A stretch of 63,817 nucleotides of DNA from Vermamoeba vermiformis (taxonomy: Eukaryota). The notes beneath the pieces were generated by a model. It searched no databases. It was not told the DNA's origin and saw nothing but the letters and a program-made list of their open reading frames with translations. The stretch lies in NCBI GenBank assembly GCA_045837725.1, contig JBEWZL010000258.1, forward strand, positions 1 to 63,817, given 5' to 3'. The translations under genes and the position numbers were made by a program. Shown piece after piece: positions 31,541-61,671 of the stretch; positions within the stretch are counted from its first letter, which is position 1; every line of letters begins with the position of its first letter.

Positions 31541-34500
31541 ATGCCCGAGCTGCCTGAAATCAAGCGCTATGCATATATGATTAATAAGAAATGCAAGGGT
31601 CTTGAATTCAATTCAGTCTCGTGCTCTTGGGCCAAATATCCTGCCTTGGTAGTCCCGTGGGGAAGGTACGTAATTAAATACACGCAATATTCGCTTTAAC
31701 GGACGCGAAAGTCCGTCGATCTGGATTTCAAATTCATTTAACCGTCATTAAATATCTACGCCCATTATTTTAAATACATTTGACCCCAAAAAAATAATAT
31801 AAATTATATTTAGCAAATTTACTATTTCTGCCGAAGCTAGAGGCAAGGAGTTAATGCTCACCTTAACAAATCCGAGTTCCGTCAGTCAAAAAATGACAGT
31901 TGTATTTACTCATGGTTTGGTAAGTTTATTGTGTATTTATTTTAATTATGGCACGCTTAAATTACGTGCCCAAACGTCAAATCCATTTCCAGGAAATGAC
32001 TGATCCGATCGAAATTTAGGTTGGCTCTTGGGAGTTTACTTCGAGCTCTAGCGTTTCTAAATACGCTCTCGTTCAGTTTACCAATGGTACCAACACGCTT
32101 AGGTGCGCAGTATTCGAGTTTTCTTTTTTGGTCTTTTTCTAACTCTCGATCAGCTACGTGGACGTGCAAAAGATGGGTGGCTACAATGTGGGTACATGGG
32201 GCAAAGATCGCGGACCAGATCCTGTAAACGTAAGCCTTCGCCGTCTGATTCTATTCTATCATATGTAAATTTCCTTTCTGATCCATTATTTCAGGAGCAC
32301 GAGGCCTTCTGTAAAAATATTATGGACTCCATCAAATACGTGGTGTTCAACAAAGATATTTGCGAAGTACTGCTGGAACAGTCTTATTTCAATGGTAGGA
32401 CCAATTGCATCTCTCGTCTGTGTCAACCTTCGTGCCTATCTAATACTTTCCAAATTAGGCATTGGCAATTATCTCCGAGCAGAAATTCTTCACCGCGCCA
32501 ACATTAATCCGTTTACCAAAGCACGTGATGTTTTTAAGTTCACGAAGCTGGACCAAGGCTTCGACAACATCGATCAGAACAGCGATCGCGGCCTCATCTT
32601 ACTTTATTTGTGCAAAGCTATTCCGTTAGAAGTATTGGAGAAAGGACTCAACAAATATGGCAATGATCAGGAGAAGGCTGCATTCGAGGCCTGGTTGACG
32701 TATGTTCGATGATGAAATTTCTTTGATGACACGTGTTGACACTTGTGAAGGGTCTACAACAAAGGAGACAGCAAAAAAGACAAAAAAGGCCGCACAATTC
32801 ACTACACCAACTCGCAAATGGCTGGTGTCGCCAAAGTATCACTGTACAAGCCTGCGTCACGCACTGCTGAGGAAGCACTCGCACGCTTCGAAGGTGATAG
32901 CATTCCTTCGAGCACATCTACTGCCACGGCAGCACCAGCTACAAGCACCGCAGCGACATCAAGCTTTACATTTGGCACTAGCTCGAATAGCAACACGAAC
33001 AGCTTCACGTTCGTCAACACCGCTTCCAAGTTTGGTGATAGCTGGAAGCAAAACACACCGAAACCAGTTCAAATGTACGTACCAATCCATGCTACTCATT
33101 CATAACTAATACTGTTATGTGTCCCTTAGTTCTATTGACGTCTCAAAAATCGATCGTATTTGCGACTTGTCACGTTCTGCTGAAGCTTCATTAGTGCCGG
33201 GTTATTCTTGCCTCCTTGAACACGTAAGGAATTCAAATGCTATTTAAGACTTGCTAACCACATTTGTAGCCCGAAGAGAACCAATTCCACTTGTTACAAA
33301 TCATTGCTGTGAGCAACGGAGCCGTGTTTTGGCAACGATTCGGACCAAGTAAGCAGCACTCACTAGGAAATTTATCATCGAGCCTAATCTAATTATTCGC
33401 GGACAGAGACGTCTCTCGGTGTGCAACTTCGTCAAGGCCCGTCAGACAAGAATCACGCCATTGCACAGTTTGAAGACATTTTCAAAGAGAAGACTGGCCG
33501 CCCTTGGGAAGAACGTGCGTTTGCAGTGCGTCAGCCAGGCAAATACGAGCTCAAGGAGTACGACATGACCACTAGCGCCAAGTCATTTTCAATCCCAAGC
33601 ACACAATCAGCGGAGGTTGGTGGCATGGACCGAGCTGAATTTGGCTCACTCGATCCAATGGCCAAGCTGCTCGTCATGTTGGCCAGCATGGGTCGCAAGG
33701 GCCTGTTGACCACCGAACAGAAATCACACTTGAAGTACAAGATCCTCAACGAACAATCACCGTTGTTGTACAATGCTTTGGAGGCCTATGAACGAGACAA
33801 CAACGAGGCTGAACTCGCTGACACATTTGCAAGAGTGTTGGCCTTCGAGAAGGGAGAACGACTTCACGACCAATTCACGCCCGCACAGCCCGTGCCTTGG
33901 TCCTCGCAGTTCGGATCTGACTCCGACACATTCCAAGGAGTTGACAAGACTGCACCCGCTTGGCCTAAATTCGCTCCGCCCGTTCAATCATCTTCCAGCG
34001 GCTTGACTTCAACACTAACAGACCCATCGTGGCGAGCACTTTTGGAACCCGAATTCTCCAAACCGTACTTCAAGAAGCTGGAGAAGTTCGTCGAAAAGCA
34101 ATACTCGTCCAAGGAAGTATTCCCGCCCAAGGACTTGATTTTCAACGCGTTCAATTTGTGTCCATTTGACAAGATCAAAGTAGTCATTCTCGGTCAAGAT
34201 CCGTATCACGACAACGGTCAAGCTCACGGCCTCTGTTTCAGTGTCATGCGCGGCGTTCCCGTGCCCCCCTCACTGAAAAACATTTACAAGTACGTTTTCA
34301 CTTTGATTTGAATTAAGTGCTCATTGTGTCCTTTGCAGGGAACTCAAGTCCGATGTCGGTTTTGAACCACCAGAGCACGGCAACTTGGAGAGCTGGGCCA
34401 AGCAAGGAGTGCTGTTGCTGAACACCGTGTTGACTGTTGAGGCTCACAAAGCTAACTCGCACAAGGACCAAGGCTGGGAGACCGTAAGTGACTCTTCGAT

Positions 34501-34779
34501 AAAGCCAATATGGTGCTAACCAGAGAATGACAGTTCACGGACGAAGTTATCCGTCAGATTGGCTTGAAGAAGAAAAACGTCGTGTTCTTGTTGTGGGGCA
34601 CGCCGGCGCACAAGAAAGAAAAGTTGTTGAAGATTGGCAATCATCATATTTTGAAGACTGCGCATCCCTCACCGCTCAGCGCGCACGCTGGATTCATTGG
34701 TTGCAAACACTTCTCGATGACGAACACTTTCTTGAAACAACAGGGCTTTGAACCTATTGATTGGCAATTGCCGCAGTAA
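31541..34779 (+). CDS. UNG: NEIL1-like glycosylase - WGR domain - uracil-DNA glycosylase fusion
   Basis: [35 protein letters not shown]; then [15 protein letters not shown]; then GQDPYH, PPSL, GVLLLN, HPSPLS. Splice phases checked by hand from NEIL1 into UNG with no stop. Confidence 0.85.
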
Positions 34780-49881: not shown

Positions 49882-52800
49882 ATGTCACGTAAAAAGGGAG
49901 CGAACTGGAACCTGACTAAAGGCGAGAAAAAGCAGCTGTCTCCACTAAAAGGAAAAGACAACGTCCACGTCCGATTGGACAAAATCCAACCCCAAAAAGG
50001 TGTTAGACAAACTGGCATTAATAGAGCTTGGAAATTAGAGAAGGAGTTGGTCGAGAAAACAGGTAAGATCTTGATCTTTTCAATTCTTTTGGATTATTAT
50101 TCTTTATAATAATTAATTTCGTCTTCGGTCATGCAATTAAATAATAATATAATAATATATCATATTTATGCAATCAAGCAAACGAATGGTTGTATTCTTT
50201 GTCGGATTCAATTTCGCTAAAGTCATTCAGGCCGAGGAACTCGCAACTGGACGAAGAAGCAAGTTAAAGAATTGCAAACAAAAGGCAAAGTATCCGGTTT
50301 TAAAGGGCATCACATAGTAAATGTCAAAAGCAATGCCGATCTGGCTGGAGATCCTCGCAATATTGTCTTTGTCTCGAAGAAAGAGCACGAACTAGTTCAC
50401 GGCAAAAACTTCAGAAACGACACGCAGGGTCGTGGCATCGATAGGAAGGCGATGATAAAGCAGCACGAAAGCACCGGTATAAAAAGACCTGTTGGTGAGA
50501 AGATAGCCGAGGCTGAAGCACGTGCACTGCAGCGTGTCAAATTACGACCGGAACAAGCACAACAACTCACGCAAAAGGTTGGAGACTTGGGTGCGCGTCT
50601 AAAACCTGGACTTGAAAAGGCGCAGAAGTTGGCAAAGTTTGCAGGAATAGCTGAGGACGTGAAAGAGTTTTGGGATGCAGAGGATAAGTAAGCACACTTT
50701 TTTTGTCTAACAGTAGATCTAATACTCAACAGAATAATGGCGGGAGCCAAAATTATCGGCAAGAGAGCTGGAGCGCGAGTTGGTGCTGTAATCGGAGGAA
50801 CAGTAGGAGCGCCTTTTGGCGGTGTAGGAGCGCCTATTGGCGCAGCAGCTGGCTATATTGGAGGTACGCGCAATTGTTCCCTGTGGCCACATTCGACTCA
50901 TTGTTTAATCAGGCGAATACGCTGGCGAGTACTTGGCCGAGAAAGGAGTAAATTTTGTCCGCAAGGTGAAGAACAAAGTGATGCAAGTCATTGGAGACGA
51001 AGCCCAAGGACCGCCACAAGAGGACAAACCCCTCGAGTTGGAGGTTGTTAAAAAAGTCGTTGTTTATTACTCGAGCGACGACGAGATAGCCTTGCCAGCA
51101 GCTGCATTTGATGACGAGTTTTCCGACGAGGCAAGTAATTGATAACCTGATTGTTATAGGCATTGTTCTGAGTGTTTTGATAGGACGTTCCACCTCCAAA
51201 GAAGGCGCCTCTGCCTCTGCCAGCAAAACCAAAGCAACCCAAAGAACCAGAGGTTGAGGAGGTTGAGGATGACGTTGCGCTCTCGGCTGAAGAAGACGTC
51301 GAAGACATTGAAGTCGAGATGGTAGAGGAGGACGCCGTTCTTGTCAACCAAGGCCAAGAAGAGATTGGGGAGGAGTTGACAGAAGAGGATGTCGAGGGTG
51401 TTAAGGCAATATTCAGCGAAGATCTCGAGCGTGATTTGTTCGATGTTGCCAACTTCGTAGTTGATAACTTTTTGCCGGACAACGACACAAAGAAGGTCGT
51501 GCAAGGTAGGGTTTAAATCTTACAAAGGGTTGGTGCGGACACTAATGGAGCTGTTAGGTGCGCTTGATTGCTATGCATTCGCCCGTGGTTACAAAGACAT
51601 CACAGATCCGCTGGCAGTAGCCGGAGCGCTTGTAAATTATTTGCCTCCAGAGCTTCAAAAGATTGCAAGCCCCGTGCTTAAGGGTGTACAAGCGGCCAAG
51701 ACAATGGCTGAAATGGCCGACAAGTTGCAAAACGGACTTGACGCCATTCAGCTTGCAGATGTTACCAACGTGCTCGGACTCGTTGCTTTGATCCCTGGCA
51801 TTCCTCCTGAAGTATCGGCTGTTATTGGTGTCCTCTCTGCAGCTGCTAAATTAGCTTCGCTCCTCGCAGCTGGAACTGCGCCGATTCTTCCAGTTGCACT
51901 CGCTGTGGCTAGTCTTCTTTTGGCTTTGCACAAGATGTTCGACCTATTTTCGGGTCTGGATCTTGGAGGCGGAGGAGGTGACGGCGATGGTGACGGCGAC
52001 GGCGACGGGGGTGACGATGATGGAGATGATGGTGACCAAGATCCTTCTGATGCGCAACCAGATGATGGTCAGCCTGACCCCACAGCGCAACCAGGTTTTG
52101 GCAACGCTCCGGGCAATGCTCCAGGCTATGGTCCTGGTGATGGGCAAGGAGAAGCTGCGGTTCAACAGCCTCCGCAAGGTCCAAACCGTCCGAATGCAAA
52201 TGAGCCTAGAAACCAACCGCCGAATAAGCAACAAGATAAGCAGGAGCAGAATCGAAACCAACCACAACAGTCTAAGGATAATCCGCCCTTGAACGATCGA
52301 AAAGCCAACCAAGACGGACAACAAAACCAAGCAAAACCCGAACAATCTCCCCAACATGATGATCCGTCTGAAAAGCCTGATGATGCAGGTCAGGAGCTTA
52401 GCGAAGACAACGCCCAAAACGAGCTTGAAAGAGAGCCCCGAGGAGGCGAGAAACAGCGCGATTTACCTCGCCGAAATATTGACCAGGAGAAGAACCTGCA
52501 CCAAAAGGAACAACCTGCCGGTAAACCTCAGCTCAAGAACGATTCCGAAGAGTTTGGTGAAGGCGAAGATATGGACCTTGCGGGCGATTCCGTTGATATG
52601 TCAGACGGCGAAGGAGAGTTCAGCAGTTCGGACGAGGACCTTGCAGGAGAACCTAAAGAGCAATTAGAAGAGCTGACAGGAGACTATGGCGGCTTTGAAG
52701 AGGCGCTAGAGGAGCGCAAAGGAGACTACGACGGCTCTGAAAATGGTTTGGAAGACATCGACGGATCCGAGTTGGCACCAATTGATGCCGCGGAGTTGGA

Positions 52801-55800
52801 CGAAGAACTGCTGCCCACATCTGACCACAAGAGCCAGCAAAAGCAATCTAAAAATAGCAAAGTGACTTCGGATTATGAAAATGTGGACGCAGATGGCGAA
52901 GGCAGTGGAGACGAGGATGGTTCATCCAGTGGTCTGGCTCTAAGCGATTTTGATGGTGAAGAATTCGATCTTGAGCCGTTCTTGACGAAAGGAGAAAAGC
53001 GCAAAGCGAAGGCCGAAATGAACCATGGCGTTAAGAGCGATGGCAGTGGCAGTGAAGAGGCTGGTCATGGCAGTGACCTTGATGAAAACAATGACGAGGC
53101 TGATTTGGGATCTGAAGAGGGAGATGGCTACAACATCGAAGACACTATAGAGGCACCTGAAGGCGCTCAAATGGAGGTGGACAATCCCACAGAGTTTGCG
53201 GGGCACACGGGAGGTGAAACTGACGATGCCACGGGCGATAACAGTTATGAAAGCGAAGGCGAGGATGGAGACTATGATTCATTCTCTGAAGACTTGGCGA
53301 ATGAACTTGAGGCAGATTTCACCGAAGAAGAGGTTGCTGGGGCTAAAGAGCGAATCAAAGAAGCCAAAGAAGGCGTATCATCTAACGCGACTGTTTGGGC
53401 CAAGATCGATGCCTTGTGCCAATTCATCGAAGAAGTTGACTACGTGTCAGCAATTCTAAATGATGATACGGCCTTTGCGGCAGCACAAAAGCAGTTGCTA
53501 TTAGCATATACGCACTACAATGCTCAACGCAACGAATGGCTGCAACGCGAGCGCGTACAAAGAAGAGAAGCTCCAAAGGTGAAAGAACTTACGTCTGACA
53601 ACGACAAAACTGAAGAGTCTGAGAAAAGCGATAGGTCCGATGAAGACTCCATGTCGGAGATCCTCGAAGCTGCAGTTAATCTGGTAAGTTTAATTCACCT
53701 AAAACAGTTGAATTCTAATGTTGATCAGATGGATGAAAGTGATGTCGAAGAGCTCGATGACTTCAATGAAGAAGATCTCAGTGACTTCGATGACACATTC
53801 AGCTGTGCTGAGCACGAGCAGGTTGACGATGAAAATCGCAATATTGAGCATGTGGGCAAGATTGTAGGACATCGTACGATGGATGACGCACCAGAAAGGG
53901 GAAAGGCAATCTATCGCCCGTCAGCGTCGAAGTTACACCACAAAAAATACGATCGAGAAGAAGAGCCCGAGGGCGTAGTTTTCAAAGAGAACTATGACGA
54001 GAACCAGCACGAGTTCATGAAGCAAGTCGCTGAACGGGCTTTCTACCAGGCGCAACAAACCGAAGCTACTGACAAGAATAGTATTTCAACTACTATTGTC
54101 AACAAAGAGAAGCTGTTCAAACAGCTAGTCAGTGGTGATGTTCCATCCACTCTGAAAGCCCTGTTAGCTGACGAGCAAGCGCAGTCGTTGGCACAGTTGA
54201 CCAAAGGCAACGCCTCCTTTTCTCGAACGGTGCTTGAACTACTTAGCGATGAAATTTCAGAAGTGAAGCAAATCGAGCTCTTGATCAAGTTTTGGAAGCC
54301 CCTCGCAAAGCTCTTTGTTATCAGCGATGGCCTCTTCCCTCAGCAATTCTCAGAATTTCAGCCGTTCATGAACAAGCTCACCGTGGCGCTCGCATCTACT
54401 GAGTACCAACAATTTGTGCGAATATTGCCTGATTTGGAAGCTCTTGTAGAACAGGCTAGCGTGCTGAAGTTTGATCTCGACAAACAATCTGATGAGAAGA
54501 AGAACATTGTTGAAAAGGACAATCGCGATGTTGCAGAACGAATACTGTGCAAGGGAATGGCCGCCAGCGACGAAGTTGCAACAGTCAATTGCTTGGAGTC
54601 GCCGCTAGATTTCCAGGGCATTCATTACAGCGACGACATTAGTCATATTTTGCCGATTCACGCGTTACAATTGGATAATCCCGATCTCGAGATCATGTTT
54701 TGGCGAGATTTCACCGAGAAGAGATTAGTCACTTACGAACATGATGGCGGAGTAATTGACGACTCCAACGATGACTACGCGCAGATGCCACGAGCAAAAG
54801 AGACTCTGAACTATTTGATCAATGAGCGAGCACCTTTTGTCGTGTGCTTGAATACGCCGGTCAAAACGGAGAGGAAAGAAGCATTGGCCGTCAAACTATT
54901 GGTCTTAAATGTCATGCGCCAATGTCTGATCGAGCAACGAACTGCCTTTGTTTTTGGTTTCACGTCAAAAGACAATCCAAACGACGTTCAAAAGCATACA
55001 TTGACGCCAAGTTTTGACGGCCTATTAGCACTGTTCGAGATTTGCCAAGCAACATTTGACAGAACTGAAGCTTTCCACGAAGTCTATGCTTGGACAACAT
55101 GCGAGCATGCACCTTTGCACAGCGGTGCTTCATACTTGAAGGAAATGGAGAGCAAAGGACAGTCGTTGTTAGCTGAAGTCATCGTCACATCCGACCGCAT
55201 CACTTCGCTGTCTTGGCCGTATGCGCTATTGCCGTCCCATGGAAGGTTGCTAGTTCACTTGCTAGAGCCAAATACCATCAACTACTGCTCAGCTGTCCTC
55301 GAGAATGATACCTTCAATGTGGTGGTGGAGCCTAAAGTATTGGCAGACCTGCCTATCGTTGGGTTTATCGATAGCAAGTCCAAACACGCACAAGGTTTGG
55401 ATCATTACCGCGCCGAAGAATTGGAAGGAAAGGACGTGCACCACGTGTTCTGGGATGGCAGCAAGACCGGCGAAAGTGCATCTGTGTGTCTGGCATTTGA
55501 TCACAAATGCACTTTCGAATTCAACGCGGGCATCAAATTGAATCAGTTCACTGTGAAAGGAGCTTCGCCATTTGTCAGCGCATTGGGCCAGCCGAAGACC
55601 ATTGCCACCGTTGAGAAGTCTCTAGTGGCATTGACGACCTTCGGAAATAGCGACGAAATTTCGATCTCGTCCAACCTCCTCGTACGTCCGACCTCAATGG
55701 TGTCACTGCCAACTGTTAATTTCTGTTGCTCATTGATTCATCACGTGAACTTTGATGAGCTATCAGCGCATCCTATTAACTCGCCAGTTGTTAAAGAGCA

Positions 55801-56233
55801 CATGGAGTTGTGGTTGAAGGCAGACGCAGGTGTCAGCAAACCTGAGTGGCACTGGCAAGATCAATCTGCCAAGCAGCGAGATGTCAATGATATCACAGAG
55901 GATAACAGTCAATTGCCTGCGTTAAAATACAACGAAGCAACGCAACAGAGATACCTGCAGTTTACTTCAAACACTCATTACGCCGTGAATGAGCTACCAG
56001 AGCAGCTAGTAGATGTGTTCGTCGTGCACGAAAAGCAAGGTTTGCCAGTGACACTTGGCCGAGAAGTCGTGCCATTCAACAGCTTGTCGGTATTTCCAAC
56101 GACGAAAGTGAACTGCTTGAACATACGAGGCGCATTTATTAACGTTTACGAAGTACTGGTGCTGCGACAAGGCAGTCCAGCTGAATGTGTTGAAGTCGTG
56201 CTGAAGTATTTGAAAAAGAAGTACAATGTTTAG
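49882..56233 (+). CDS. Giant (~1,900 aa) Tox-GHH nuclease - glycine zipper - acidic linker - ViaA-like VWA protein with LamG-like C-terminus
   Basis: RAWKLEKELV..GTRNW..GKVSGFKGHH..LAGDPRNIVF..EH..H..NFRN; GARVGAVIGGTVG..GAAAGYIGG; GIHYSDDISHILP..FWRDFTEKRLVTYE..PFVVCLNT; splice phases continuous (one GC-AG intron at ~51131). Confidence 0.75.
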
Positions 56234-56255: not shown

Positions 56256-58953
56256 TTAGCATCTTTTGTTCGTCTTCAAATCGTTATCAGCGATTGGTTG
56301 AAGCTCCAATCGATGAAAGGCGTTGAATTCTGCGGCTTTGGTTGTGAAGAGTTGCGGATCTCGCAAAAGAATGGTTGCAGCTTCACTAGCGAGAGGAGAT
56401 GAAGTCATATTCTTCATAACATCCAAATGATTGTTCTTAGGGTTGATCAAGTGATTCTTCAAATCGATTAAGAACTGCTTAAGCTTTGATGCCAAATCGA
56501 TTCCTTGAGGTGGATCCAAGCAGTAAATAACTCCATCGGCACTAACCTGTGGATGGAAGATAGGAGATAGTACACGTGCCGAGATAATCGAAGTCAAGGG
56601 ATCGATGTGTACGGCGACTTTGTGCCAGTATTGTTGCTGCTTGATGCCTACGAGGAGGTAGTTGCCAATCAACGTCGATTGAGCCGTCACGAAATTTCTC
56701 ACAACAACGTCATTTGGAAGGAATCCTGCTAGTTGAATCCAGCCCTTAGTGCTAAATTGAGATTCGTTAACGAAAATTTTGCCAGTGCTGTCATGCTTCA
56801 CTGGATGCGGAGCTTGAGGAATTCTTGGAACTCTTTGCAATCCGTCGCAGATTCTTTTCATGTCTTCGCACTCTTGTGGCGATATCCAAAAGTGGTTATT
56901 GCAGTTTTGAATGACAGTGTCTATGTGTTCAGGGAAGAGTTGCAGTGTAGTTGACAGGGCTTGCAAAAAGATGTCATAAATGTCATCAATTTGCGTATGA
57001 CGGTTCCACGTTAAATGTTTGAGAATGGCACAGTCTGAAAGACATATGGGTCTGCGTACTTCACTCGTGTGGGCAACCATTTGAATTACTTGACGGATCT
57101 TGATCCAACGACGCGGCGAGACATAGATCTTCTTCTTGTCAAGCTGAGTCATCATATTATGGAGCAAGAAGAATACGGCGTCGTTTAATTCTTTTGTCTG
57201 ACCTTCTTGGCGAATGACCGTTAGAGCTTCAGGAGTGAATAAAAACGCCTCCGGGATCTCGACATTATCTGCAAATAAATGAGTCAGATTAGAGTATGGC
57301 TAATAAAGAGGTATAGTCTTACTTGAAATAACATTTAACGGATTGATCAGGTCCCTAAAACCGGATCCACCCACATCCGGAACAAGAATCGGTCGTACAA
57401 GGCTTGAAGTTCTCCAGTATTTGCAGGATACTCGTTGCTAGCAGCGACGGCGATGAGTAGAGGAATATCGTACCGAGCAGTTCCGTTGTCGAATTTTCTT
57501 TCGTTGAGAATGGTCAGCATGGAGTTCAGAATTGCGCTGTTGGCTTTGAAAATTTCGTCTAAAAATGCAACGCGAGCTTCAGGCAAGTAACCTTTGGTGA
57601 TTCTATGGTGTCGGTCGAGTTTCAGATCCTGGATCGAAAGCGGTCCAAAAAGTTCTTCGGGCAAAGTGAACTTGGTGAGCAATCTCGAGAACATTTTTTC
57701 GTTTCGTGAAATCAGAGAAGTGATTCGTGAACAAAGTTGACTTTTGGCGACGCCAGGTGGACCCAACAAAAGACTATGTTCTCCGCATAACAAACTTAGA
57801 AGCATTAGTGAGCAGTGTTGTTCTCGTTCAACCAGGCCAGCTCTAAATTTGTTCAATATGAACTTCAAATTTCCAATAATGTTACTCGCGCGTTCGTTAG
57901 GCGAAGAGGAATTGGGGACGAGTGTCGCGGGGGAGTTAGTTGCGTTGACCAATCGTTGACCAGAGTTTGCGAGGCTTCCTGGCGAGTCCTTGGTTTTCTT
58001 CTCATTGGTCACTGGGTTCGTGCTATTGGTTGAAACGTTCGTGTTGTTTGGCGGATCCTGATCCTGATCTTGATCCGACTGAGTTGCCTTTGCTTGTGCT
58101 CGTTGAAGCGCTAAAAACTTTTGCTGAATCTTGACGAGGATTTTCCGTTGACCAATGGTGAAGTTCATTTCGGCGAAGTCTTTCTCCGTCAGCCGTACGA
58201 ACGACCAACCGGATGTGATACTGTTATCCGCTAGTGTTTGCAACCATTTGAAGACGTCTTCTTTAGATATTGATCCGTCCTTAACAAGCTTCGACGAGAA
58301 GTGCGAAAAATACTTTTTGAAGAGCACGTCTTGGGAGGGGCTTTTGTTTTGTTTGAGCGAGCTTTTTTGCTTATCTGGGGCAGAAGAGGACTTCGGTTTA
58401 CGATCACGAGCATAGACGAGAATATAAACGTCTGTTTCATACTCGTCAAAGTCGATAAAGGATTCGTCAACAGCAATGATTTGAAAACCTTCTTGATCTC
58501 TGTGACACTATAGGGATAAAATAAATATAAAGGCAAAGAGGCTATTTTTCATCGATTTACTTACCACTAGGCACGAAAGAACGAATTTTTGGGTTTGCTT
58601 TTGCGAATCCAAAAGCGATAAATTAATTTCAAACGCTGTAACGTTTCGTTGTTTCTGACCGCGAGGAAATCTGTCGACATGAACTACAAGAATATCCACC
58701 GTGCTATCTAAAGCCCTAAATACAATCAAAGAATTAAAAACGTATTCTTTTGGTTGCGGATTTACGCCTGTACTAACCCTAATTTCTCGTTAATCGCTGT
58801 AGTAATTTGATATTCTTTATTTTTATCCAAATTGACTTTGACATTTCGGATTTTATCAGAGTCGCCCGCTAAAGAATGAACAGATTGCAAGGGATCAACT
58901 TTCTGAGCGACGTTTTCCTGCAACTTCGAGATTAATGTTGTTGCTAATGACAT
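56256..58953 (-). CDS. ravA: RavA-like MoxR AAA+ ATPase with N-terminal SAM-like and C-terminal UBC/E2-like domains; apparent frameshift at ~57357
   Basis: LVERE..GEHSLLLGPPGVAKS, LLTKFTLPEELFGPLS, GYLP..FLDEIFKANSAILNSML.ILNER, ASNE, ALYDRF, SPRRW; IFHPQVSADGVIYCLD..PLASEAA. Confidence 0.85.
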
Positions 58954-59333: not shown

Positions 59334-61671
59334 TCAATCGTCATATCGCTTGTTTGGTTTTTTGTTTCGCTTTGTTCTTCCATAGTCAGTTGTGTTTATA
59401 TTTCGGTATTCACGTGCAATCCACTCAGTACTTGTCACTGGCTGTATCAACACTGGGGCATCATAGTCATTTTCATCTAATTCATCTTCATCTGGATAAG
59501 TCTCTGGTATGACAGCATCAACATCAGGGTGCACTGCCTCGTGCACCACTTTCACTGAGGTTGTGGACTGGTCATGGTGACGCTGCTGTGGTGGCAAGAA
59601 CATCAATTCATAATTTGTTGTTGGGCTGTCAAACTCAATATCTAGTAGATCAATTGCAGTTGTGTCGTCTTCTGCAGGCTGATCGGCATTGAATAATTCT
59701 TCAAAGTATTGTTGCTGTTCCTCAGATAGTTTGTCGTAAGTTTTTCTGGTCGCTTCAATCACTTTGTCGTCAATTGGCTTTGGTTCAATCTTGATTGGTT
59801 TGTCCGCTGGAATATTGTGAAGGATAACAATATCGTCACCATCTGCACCCCCTTTCCACTCCTCATCTGTTGCCGTGTAATTGCGCCAATGCATTACAAC
59901 GCTTCCTTGTGCATTGACAGTGAATCGAAAAACATGGGGCTTTGTGTGCCCAGTGAGCTTTGGTAGATATGGGGCAAGCCAGCCACGATAATCATAGATA
60001 GTTTTTACCAATCGCACTTCTGGCGGCGAATTGTAGCAACTCTTAATGTACTCTTTGACATCTTCATCGTCGCCCGTAAGGAGATTATGTGACTTGAGTC
60101 CAATAGCCACTGGCACGTTCTCTTGGTCAATGTCTGTATGAGTGTGTCCTTGAGGAAGGCAAATGAAATAGATGGTATTGGTAAACTTTTTGAGCAGCAA
60201 AACCGCAAAAAAGCCAAAAACGTAGGTATTTTTGTTCTCTCGCCAGCAGTTGTCGCTTTGAAATACCATTGTTGGTGGCAGAGCCTGACCATCTCTGATT
60301 TGCGAAACTATGTGAATGGCTAGTAGATTGATGCTGTAATTGCTGTCGTGACTATACTGTTGTGCAATTGAGACAAACAGAGTACGTCGCTTGGTGTTGT
60401 GGTTGATAAGTCCGGATATTTGCAATCGCAAACGTGCAAGACGGAGCCAAGATTTTGGGAACTGAGACCAGGCAATGTGCGGAATCAAAATCCCTGAATA
60501 GCCATCCCATATCATTTGCCAAATCAAAAAGCTAGCGATTAGCTTTCGGTTAGAATATGTCAGCCGTTCTAACTTTTGCAATGCGTTGTGCTTTGCCACT
60601 TGCTTTTGAACGTTGGTAACTTGAGTTTGGGACACTGCAGCAGCTTGTTGCAACTTCCTACGCAAGATTAGCTTCACTGTGAGTATGGAAGAAACTTACA
60701 TTCTGAGCTCCACACATTCGTCACATTTGCCCAACCGCGTAGTCTTTGGGAATTTGATCCATGCGTACTGAGAAATTGTCGTATAGAAAGTACTCAGCGA
60801 TGCTATGCGATGCGTTTCCTCAAATTCTGAAGCATATTGAGCGTAAAGAAGCTTTTTGTTAAGCGCAATAGGGCAGTGCCATTGATCACTATCAGGTTGT
60901 TCATCGAAAAATATGGACATCAAGCTGAGCACAAAACTTTGCACCGACTGTAATTGAGCTGATGAATACAATCTGAGGGCATTACCATGTGGAATGACAG
61001 AGCAACTAGACTCTTGTTTGATTTGTTGTAGCAGAGGTGCAAGCTTGTTTGTACTGATTCCAAGCAGTTTGATGAAAGCGCGTTGACAGACTTCAAGACC
61101 GTCAAGCTTGTAACAAATCGTCGGAGGCTTGTCACTTCCTTGATCAACTTTCATCGCATTAAGGGAATCAAGTAGCCATCTTGACCTGCCATCGTGTCAG
61201 GCATTTAGCAGAAACATGAGGTACGTACCTTTCGCGCTCAGATTTCTCAGAGTATGGCAGTCGTAAGCGTTCAATCTTCTGGACATTAAATTGCCTCATA
61301 CACAGTTGTTTGCAGCACTTGTATTGCAACAGCTTTTCATTGAAATTACATAGCTTAAGCTGCTTTCGTGATGGTGACGCGACGCGCAACTTTCGAGTCT
61401 CGGATTTGTAAGTGCGTTTTGGGGAGGGGTCATAGATTGAGGATACTCGTCTATTAATATCTATTATGTGTAAGCAATGCAGCTAATTGTAGAACGATAC
61501 GTACCGTCAAAAATTTTATTGCTATCAACCTCGTAAATCCACGACCGCCGATCATCGCTCGTGCTTGTTGTCTCATCTTCATCTACATATATTAATGAAA
61601 TGCAGATAGATATAAATGCCCATACCCTTATTGAAGACTTTTGTTGTGTCAAAATCGCAGATCCAGTCCAT
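59334..61671 (-). CDS. DDD-type transposase (Sola-like), multi-exon, apparently intact
   Basis: CCKQLC, VCQRAFIKLLGIS, KCDEC, IWDG, QSDNCWRENKN, GHTHTDIDQ, HVFRF. Confidence 0.75.

Follow-up and report, generated by a model that had tools for sequence, protein, structure and literature searches.

Can the excision of uracil from DNA and the incision of the resulting abasic site be joined in a single polypeptide? This question is raised by a locus of Vermamoeba vermiformis at 31541–34779 on the forward strand of contig JBEWZL010000258.1 (assembly GCA_045837725.1), of which positions 1 to 63,817 were analysed; this whole stretch of 63,817 nucleotides is referred to as the window. The original prediction, made from the DNA letters, spliced the locus by hand into one frame that joins NEIL1, a PARP-type WGR domain and the uracil-DNA glycosylase UNG, and proposed that uracil excision is thereby channelled into strand incision without APE1. 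Here we find that the locus is one real, expressed gene, and that in a close relative it is read as one spliced mRNA. We consider it fairly probable that the product is an 833-residue multi-domain base excision repair (BER) enzyme, in which a NEIL1 lyase, a disordered linker, a PARP-derived WGR domain, a four-helix domain and UNG would act in cis on one lesion.

Three-frame translation and the location of splice sites revealed that the locus has the form of a eukaryotic gene with short introns. The coding span (31541–34779, plus strand) is divided into 12 exons in the splice model: exons 1–4 at 31541–31665, 31814–31919, 32020–32102 and 32154–32229; exons 5–8 at 32295–32394, 32459–32699, 32751–33074 and 33130–33223; and exons 9–12 at 33270–33348, 33407–34289, 34339–34483 and 34534–34779. 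The joined frame of 2502 nt begins with the ATG at 31541, ends with the TAA at 34777–34779 and reads as 833 codons free of stops, with start and stop where they had been predicted. All 11 introns are of the GT..AG type, with lengths of 46–148 nt. The product carries, in this order, a NEIL1 core, a serine/threonine (S/T) linker, a WGR domain, a four-helix domain and a family-1 UNG. Exon 10, with 883 nt, is a single open frame: it takes up the WGR domain at its C-terminal half, continues through the helical domain and covers UNG from its N-terminus to its middle, beyond GQDPYH. Because all of these lie in one exon, the join from WGR through the helical domain to UNG is independent of any splicing assumption.

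A search for longer proteins with exon 10 located an uninterrupted 838-residue open reading frame (ORF) of a close relative, referred to as P0001. The spliced model aligns with it over residues 1–833 at 83% identity (local BLASTP; 701 of 845 columns), and in a global alignment none of the 11 junctions has a gap within 8 residues. The 11 junctions are likewise gap-free against two other 838-residue ORFs, P0124 and P0125. In total, the 90% cluster of P0001 holds three distinct 838-residue sequences on six contigs of 5.5–9.7 kb. The same cluster contains fragments of 312–313 residues (P0121, P0123 and P0129) on contigs of up to 93.5 kb, and these genomic fragments run on into intron 10, like the ORF of the window itself. 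Since the genomic ORFs of the cluster read into this intron, we take the 838-residue forms to be spliced transcripts of an intron-bearing gene.

Meanwhile, RNA-type contigs of run X4 (95–99% identical) show introns 2, 4, 5, 6, 7, 9, 10 and 11 removed exactly as modelled. The observed joints include that from 33074 to 33130, which connects the exon of NEIL1 and the linker to the first WGR exon, and intron 3 is supported by a loose end at 32102 that goes on with the opening bases of exon 4. These joints, together with the end-to-end ORF of the relative, uphold the single polypeptide that had been predicted. Comparison of the window with RNA reads and contigs gave 36 single-base differences in the coding sequence, 34 of which are synonymous in the modelled frame, and the other two fall in the S/T linker. 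A further difference at 34483 (ACC to ACA) is silent by codon reading. The identity to P0001 is 89% in the NEIL1 core, 84% in the WGR domain, 93% in the helical domain and 93% in UNG, and 50–59% in the three linkers. Read from the aligned sequences, this pattern is that of four folded, selected modules joined by drifting linkers, and purifying selection acts on all four folded modules.

Domain calls were made on P0001, because single exons of the window mostly fall under the Pfam thresholds: every piece gives the expected family, and only the C-terminal UDG piece lies above threshold. The NEIL1-type Fpg/Nei core, a glycosylase and apurinic/apyrimidinic (AP) lyase, locates at 31541–32814 on the plus strand (residues 1–265, exons 1–7). 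Its motifs are MPELPE (residues 1–6), ARGKEL with the lysine (50–55), the H2TH motif [12 protein letters not shown] (162–173) and KKGRTIHY (255–262). Residues 1–302 of P0001 match residues 1–322 of human NEIL1 chains at E=1.5e-40. With exon 6 of the window alone, all 15 matches are NEIL1 entries (best E=4.9e-9), and exon 1 alone, which is too short, has no PDB match at E<=10. On P0001, the Pfam family Fapy_DNA_glyco passes its cut-off (37.2 against 25.5 bits) and H2TH stays under its own (30.3 against 34.7 bits). Neil1-DNA_bind has no match in P0001; it matches only two relatives, P0011 at 28.3 bits and P0169 at 18.1 bits.

The alignment places the N-terminal MPE also in P0001 and in four other amoebozoan fusions. 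After the H2TH motif, residues 244–300 are free of Cys and contain KKGRTIHY. In NEIL1, a ‘zincless finger’ is the stand-in for the zinc finger with four Cys that Fpg/Nei enzymes have, and the Cys-free segment may be its counterpart. The window protein shares with human NEIL1 (PDB 5ITX, 1TDH, 6LWA) its Pro-Glu at the N-terminus and the H2TH motif. At the end of human NEIL1 there is a disordered interaction tail, and the window protein instead continues with a linker, the WGR domain, the helical domain and a complete UNG. A P2T change in NEIL1 impairs catalysis (PMC5566547). As judged from these motifs, the catalytic Pro-Glu is intact, as had been claimed, and a glycosylase and beta,delta-lyase activity is predicted.

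At the other end of the protein, the family-1 UNG domain (34012–34776, plus strand; residues 612–833) occupies the end of exon 10 and exons 11 and 12. It contains GQDPYH (residues 672–677; 34192–34209), [19 protein letters not shown] and HPSPLS (796–801; 34663–34680). Residues 622–835 of P0001 match cod UNG (1okb, residues 7–221) at E=7e-83 and human UNG (1akz) at E=2.8e-76, and the UNG exon pieces of the window match solved UNGs (E=2.5e-27 and 1.7e-25). Solved UNGs have ‘[10 protein letters not shown]’ and ‘hpsplsah’ in exactly the form seen in the window, in line with the predicted integrity of GQDPY and HPSPLS. Pfam UDG (PF03167) scores 64.2 bits on P0001 against a cut-off of 24.3 bits (E=1.8e-17). 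The full catalytic domain and the GQDPYH and HPSPLS loops are thus shared with the family-1 enzymes of human (1AKZ), cod (1OKB) and E. coli (1EUG). Human UNG2 has a short N-terminal region that binds PCNA and RPA, whereas the UNG of the window has an N-terminal extension of approximately 610 residues that contains another enzyme. In human UNG, D145, H148 and H268 sit in the GQDPYH and HPSPLS loops (PMC5156901). The catalytic motifs of the window UNG are intact, from which uracil excision is predicted.

Between the two enzymes, the chain starts with the low-complexity S/T linker that the original prediction had noted (32815–33072, plus strand; residues 266–351, end of exon 7). It consists of Ser and Thr to 33% and is 59% identical to P0001, with two small indels. 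The PARP-type WGR domain follows at 33073–33576 on the plus strand (residues 352–466; exons 8 and 9 and the first ~170 nt of exon 10), and its N-terminal edge coincides with intron 7. A phmmer search of the PDB with a 129-residue WGR region found the PARP3 WGR (2eoc) at E=2.3e-5 over the whole length and PARP2 WGRs at E~0.01. Against 1.84 billion proteins, the same region has 43 matches at E<=1e-3, with the best PARP at E=3.8e-10; a word-based search with the WGR region alone returned the query itself only. Ten matches were chosen from the best and scanned, leaving out two fragments of the window's relatives and one match without a listed stretch. All ten are PARP proteins with the Pfam WGR at the matched place and a PARP regulatory domain, and eight of them also have the catalytic PARP domain.

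The AlphaFold2 (AF2) model of the domain has a pLDDT of 88 and a pTM of 0.81. In Foldseek it gave 27 matches at E<=0.001, among those listed all of them WGR domains of PARP1/2/3, and it superimposes on the PARP2 WGR with a TM score of 0.71–0.80 (best 0.74/0.80) and a root-mean-square deviation of ~2 Å; the model was built from an alignment of PARP WGR sequences, which biases it toward that fold, so that the fold result is not independent of the sequence. A whole-domain sequence match, a similar predicted fold and the equivalents of K183 and Y201 link the domain to the WGR of PARP2 and PARP3 (PDB 6F5B, 6F1K, 2EOC). On the other hand, it no longer has counterparts of K130, R153, Q159 and K179, and no PARP regulatory or catalytic domain follows: in P0001, Pfam at E<=0.1 finds UDG, Fapy_DNA_glyco, H2TH and WGR only. 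By its domain content the fusion protein is not a PARP. By sequence and predicted fold, its WGR-like domain is a genuine PARP-type, PARP-derived WGR, but a degenerate one.

The four-helix domain (33640–33858, plus strand; residues 488–560) is conserved and common to the NEIL–UNG fusions. It was found by local phmmer in 11 further NEIL–UNG fusion proteins at E<=2.3e-4, and was aligned across 16 fusions. The AF2 model of a 115-residue helical region shows four helices, with a block-mean pLDDT of 91–94 over residues 31–90, in agreement with the small helical domain first read here. Foldseek listed 275 PDB matches at E<=10, none of which reaches E<=0.001, the best PDB match by sequence reaches only E=0.63, Pfam has no match, and neither the helical domain nor exon 10 has an Atlas match. 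The domain between the two enzymes is a new module, with no relative in the Pfam, PDB, Atlas or Foldseek searches.

How widely is this architecture distributed? In a search with the whole of P0001, 24 of the 120 listed proteins carry both Fpg/Nei and UDG domains. The NEIL1–helical–UNG core is present in transcripts of the tubulinean amoebae Echinamoeba exundans, Amoeba proteus, Rhizamoeba saxonica and Pyxidicula operculata (EukProt), of which the Echinamoeba exundans protein is the best named match to P0001 (594 bits). Pelomyxa schiedti KAH3743406.1 also has the NEIL1–UNG core and is annotated merely as ‘uracil-DNA glycosylase’; the amoebozoan fusions carry this annotation or none at all. These proteins share with the window the same core, four-helix domain and UNG in the same order, but are without its WGR domain (Pfam, none of three scanned; none by local phmmer). 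As far as protein similarity shows, the source of the window most likely lies among the tubulinean amoebae, close to Echinamoeba.

The WGR-bearing form is seen only in close kin, namely the P0001 cluster, the locus L022 and the fragments P0242 and P0245. L022 represents a third WGR-bearing lineage; the locus breaks off at residue ~413, and its identity is 80–88% for exon 1 and 83% for the exon of the WGR domain. Pfam finds no WGR in 15 other Nei–UNG fusions, three of them from named amoebozoans (10 scanned at E<=1 and 5 at E<=0.1), and local phmmer finds none in any other fusion of the collected set. Because the WGR domain is restricted to close kin and its edge falls at intron 7, we regard it as having been inserted late, into a NEIL1–helical–UNG gene of amoebozoans that is older. 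A scan of metagenome contigs with P0001 gave 29 loci, 27 of which are UNG-only matches of other organisms; the contig of P0001 itself is absent from them. At the locus L026 (429–3785, GC 51%), NEIL1-like exons precede UNG exons of the same strand by ~1 kb, and tblastn finds no WGR or helical match between them. L026 could hold another divergent fusion or a pair of neighbouring genes.

Beyond the amoebozoans, UNG is joined to AP-lyase glycosylases of other kinds. The diatom Cylindrotheca closterium has a Nei–UNG fusion (CAJ1969953.1, P0234), whose Nei part is nearest to Mimivirus Nei1 structures (E=4e-23), with human NEIL1 absent among the 60 listed of 91 matches. The different Nei subtype suggests a separate fusion event. 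In P0234, the Nei part begins at residue 46, which places a presequence ahead of the catalytic proline. Nth–UNG fusions occur in Myxococcota, including the 505-residue ‘Uracil-DNA glycosylase, family 1’ of Minicystis rosea, and in many metagenome proteins. Like the window protein, the Nth–UNG of Minicystis rosea and the diatom Nei–UNG carry an N-terminal AP-lyase glycosylase and a C-terminal family-1 UNG, but the partner is the HhH-GPD fold of Nth or another Nei subtype, and WGR is lacking. Five fusions (P0021, P0034, P0041, P0206 and P0234) also differ from the window in having no match to the helical domain by local phmmer, and some bacterial Nth–UNG forms have two UNG domains. We notice that P0002–P0007 and P0139–P0161 are bacterial-looking metagenome proteins of ~720–790 residues, with endonuclease III (HhH-GPD) and two tandem family-1 UNG domains; shorter forms of ~470–505 residues, including that of Minicystis rosea, have Nth and one UNG. 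UNG is also joined to PIF1-type helicases (PF05970 and others; ~690 residues, dozens of clusters) and to PF09588 YqaJ-like nucleases (~840 residues; one cluster with 322 members).

UNG has been fused independently at least twice, to the unrelated folds of Nth and Nei, and the different Nei subtype of the diatom makes a third independent fusion likely. That UNG is found joined to AP-lyase glycosylases of three kinds speaks for selection on the coupling. The literature covered, which takes in few subscription journals, yielded no description of a NEIL–, Fpg– or Nth–UNG fusion, or of a WGR domain attached to a glycosylase. The original prediction knew of no description of this architecture; the publications covered agree with this, and the NEIL1–UNG core proved to be already in public sequence collections, with only the WGR insertion restricted to kin. 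All components belong to known families, the core fusion lies unremarked in the databases, and the WGR-bearing form is new.

What would such a protein do? In the reading we prefer, UNG would remove uracil and would by itself linger on the abasic site that it has made; the NEIL1 tethered to it would take over this site in cis and cut the strand by beta,delta-elimination. The product would be a one-nucleotide gap with 3'- and 5'-phosphates, which would need PNKP and not AP endonuclease, and the NEIL1 part would retain its own role on oxidised bases. The order of the enzymes fits the chemistry, because Fpg/Nei enzymes require a free N-terminal proline and NEIL1 must therefore be N-terminal. UNG tolerates N-terminal extensions. 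The WGR domain, inserted later and in this lineage only, would most likely raise the affinity for the nicked or gapped product or for DNA generally, and its degenerate contacts also make an altered or non-DNA role possible.

A similar logic is known from mammalian DNA demethylation, in which TDG hands its product to NEIL1 or NEIL2 (Schomacher 2016, cited in PMC5566547; Slyvka 2017, PMC5566547). NEIL1 drives TDG, a monofunctional enzyme of the UDG superfamily, off the abasic site that TDG has made and then incises the strand (PMC5566547), and NEIL1/2 leave a 3'-phosphate that is processed by PNKP (PMC5541308). The TDG system consists of two proteins in trans with a family-2 glycosylase, whereas in the window a family-1 UNG is covalently tethered to NEIL1. 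By analogy, cis coupling of uracil excision to strand incision is plausible, and the proposed channelling without APE1, favoured by the recurrent UNG–lyase fusions and by the hand-off from TDG to NEIL1, is a reasonable inference. A more far-reaching form, which we put forward tentatively and hold to be doubtful, would be that amoebae have AP-endonuclease-independent uracil repair built into one polypeptide, where, in the lineage of the window, the WGR domain captured from a PARP gene clamps the 5'-phosphorylated gap until PNKP, polymerase and ligase arrive.

Three other explanations bear on this reading. Neighbouring genes (NEIL1, and WGR–UNG or UNG) might have been misjoined by hand splicing, or the assemblies might be chimeric. 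No single X4 contig spans the whole gene, the joints of introns 1 and 8 are not seen among these contigs, and the Trinity isoforms of the Amoeba proteus gene span 180 to 797 residues. These points would fit such an artefact, and a separate UNG from an internal promoter may be conceived. The RNA runs X21–X23, which carry the window's species label, matched 6, 4 and 6 reads of ~13 million records each, so that expression is barely seen there. The X21–X23 reads all have 95–99% likeness and, being too few for splicing or continuity, are no evidence either way. Such sparse matches could reflect weak expression in these runs, or labelled strains that differ from the window's source. An artefact is nevertheless close to refuted and highly improbable: exon 7 is open from the NEIL1 core through the linker to its GT donor, with its joint to the WGR exon present in RNA-type contigs; exon 10 joins WGR to UNG without an intron; the three uninterrupted ORFs on six contigs match end to end; and the same core fusion occurs in five named amoebozoans from independent data sets. 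If the fusion is real, it could still serve co-expression or co-localisation only, with independent domains and with the abasic sites of UNG going mainly to a separate AP endonuclease. Long, poorly conserved linkers (50–59% identity) permit separate action, and UNG has so many unrelated partners, PIF1-type helicases and PF09588 nucleases among them, that fusion alone is no proof of a shared substrate. The plant Arabidopsis has an AP lyase, FPG, with a preference for abasic sites opposite C, and an AP endonuclease with a preference for those opposite G, the product of U:G excision (PMC8395712); this does not point to lyase processing as the general fate of UNG products and counts against coupling in cis. 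We consider independent domains unlikely, since UNG has repeatedly been joined to three AP-lyase glycosylases in three distant lineages, the hand-off from TDG to NEIL1 is established (PMC5566547), and the helical domain between both enzymes is kept in 11 further fusions.

The role of the WGR domain is less settled, and there is a substantial chance, if somewhat short of even, that it is no break sensor and that its PARP-derived fold now serves as a spacer, in protein interaction or in intramolecular regulation. On P0001, Pfam WGR (PF05406) scores 21.2 bits under a threshold of 22 (E=3.1e-4, profile positions 14–75 of 79), and the exon-10 part of the window alone scores 17.6 bits; like the bias of the fold model, these scores count against the reading we prefer. 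Several observations point to a reuse of the fold. Two alignments, to PARP2 and to PARP3, put F-G-P (in FWQRFGP, 33327–33347) at the place of W-G-R. W-Q-R, read at first as the WGR motif, was rejected, as this W-x-R just before F-G-P corresponds to the upstream W-x-R of PARP2/3. The contacts reported by Obaji et al. (PMC6294510) were mapped through the PARP alignment, with the numbering offset checked on eight residues. Among the eight DNA contacts of PARP2, only K183 and Y201 are identical, and K130Q, Y132H, W151F, R153P, Q159V and K179V (I in the window) are changed, so that four of the eight have become unlike residues. The R153A change in PARP2 gives lower activity (PMC6294510). The absence of WGR from 15 other Nei–UNG fusions likewise marks it as dispensable for the core function. 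Against the loss of a sensor role, the domain keeps 84% identity where the linkers have 50–59%, and all three variants within it are synonymous. Y201, one of the two contacts kept, touches the 5'-phosphate in PARP2, whose WGR holds both sides of a 5'-phosphorylated break (PMC6294510), and a 5'-phosphorylated gap is the expected product of NEIL1. What remains of the predicted ‘DNA-break sensor’ is a true PARP-type WGR; its identity as a sensor is weakened by F-G-P and by the two of eight contacts.

Elsewhere in the window, a single open frame of 1590 codons runs over 51461–56233 on the plus strand. Glu, Asp and Leu are abundant in it, a run of Gly and Asp lies close to its start, and Pfam gives no match; the stretch around it shows a strong purine skew (AT skew 0.29, GC skew 0.14). 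On the minus strand, two adjoining open frames at 56256–58507 match an AAA lid domain and a MoxR/AAA_5 dynein-type ATPase domain (E=1e-51) and are probably exons of one large AAA protein gene. A 452-codon open frame at 59334–60695, also on the minus strand, matches DUF7869 at E=1.8e-47.

The cis action of a uracil glycosylase and an AP lyase touches long-running questions of BER, namely how abasic intermediates are handed over under shield and how the work is shared between AP lyase and AP endonuclease in vivo. A UNG covalently linked to a beta,delta-lyase is a ready-made object for kinetics in cis against trans, for product chemistry and for domain deletions, and a PARP-free WGR gives access to a DNA-break-binding fold outside ADP-ribosylation. 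For the family as a whole, the annotation ‘uracil-DNA glycosylase’ alone hides half of the function of the fusion proteins. If the proposed mechanism is true, the protein would embody the ‘passing the baton’ model of BER in a natural, covalent form, and its WGR would be the first of PARP type to serve as a break sensor for a glycosylase instead of for ADP-ribosylation. The recurrence of such fusions would then mark the hand-off from UNG to a lyase as a general, selected coupling.

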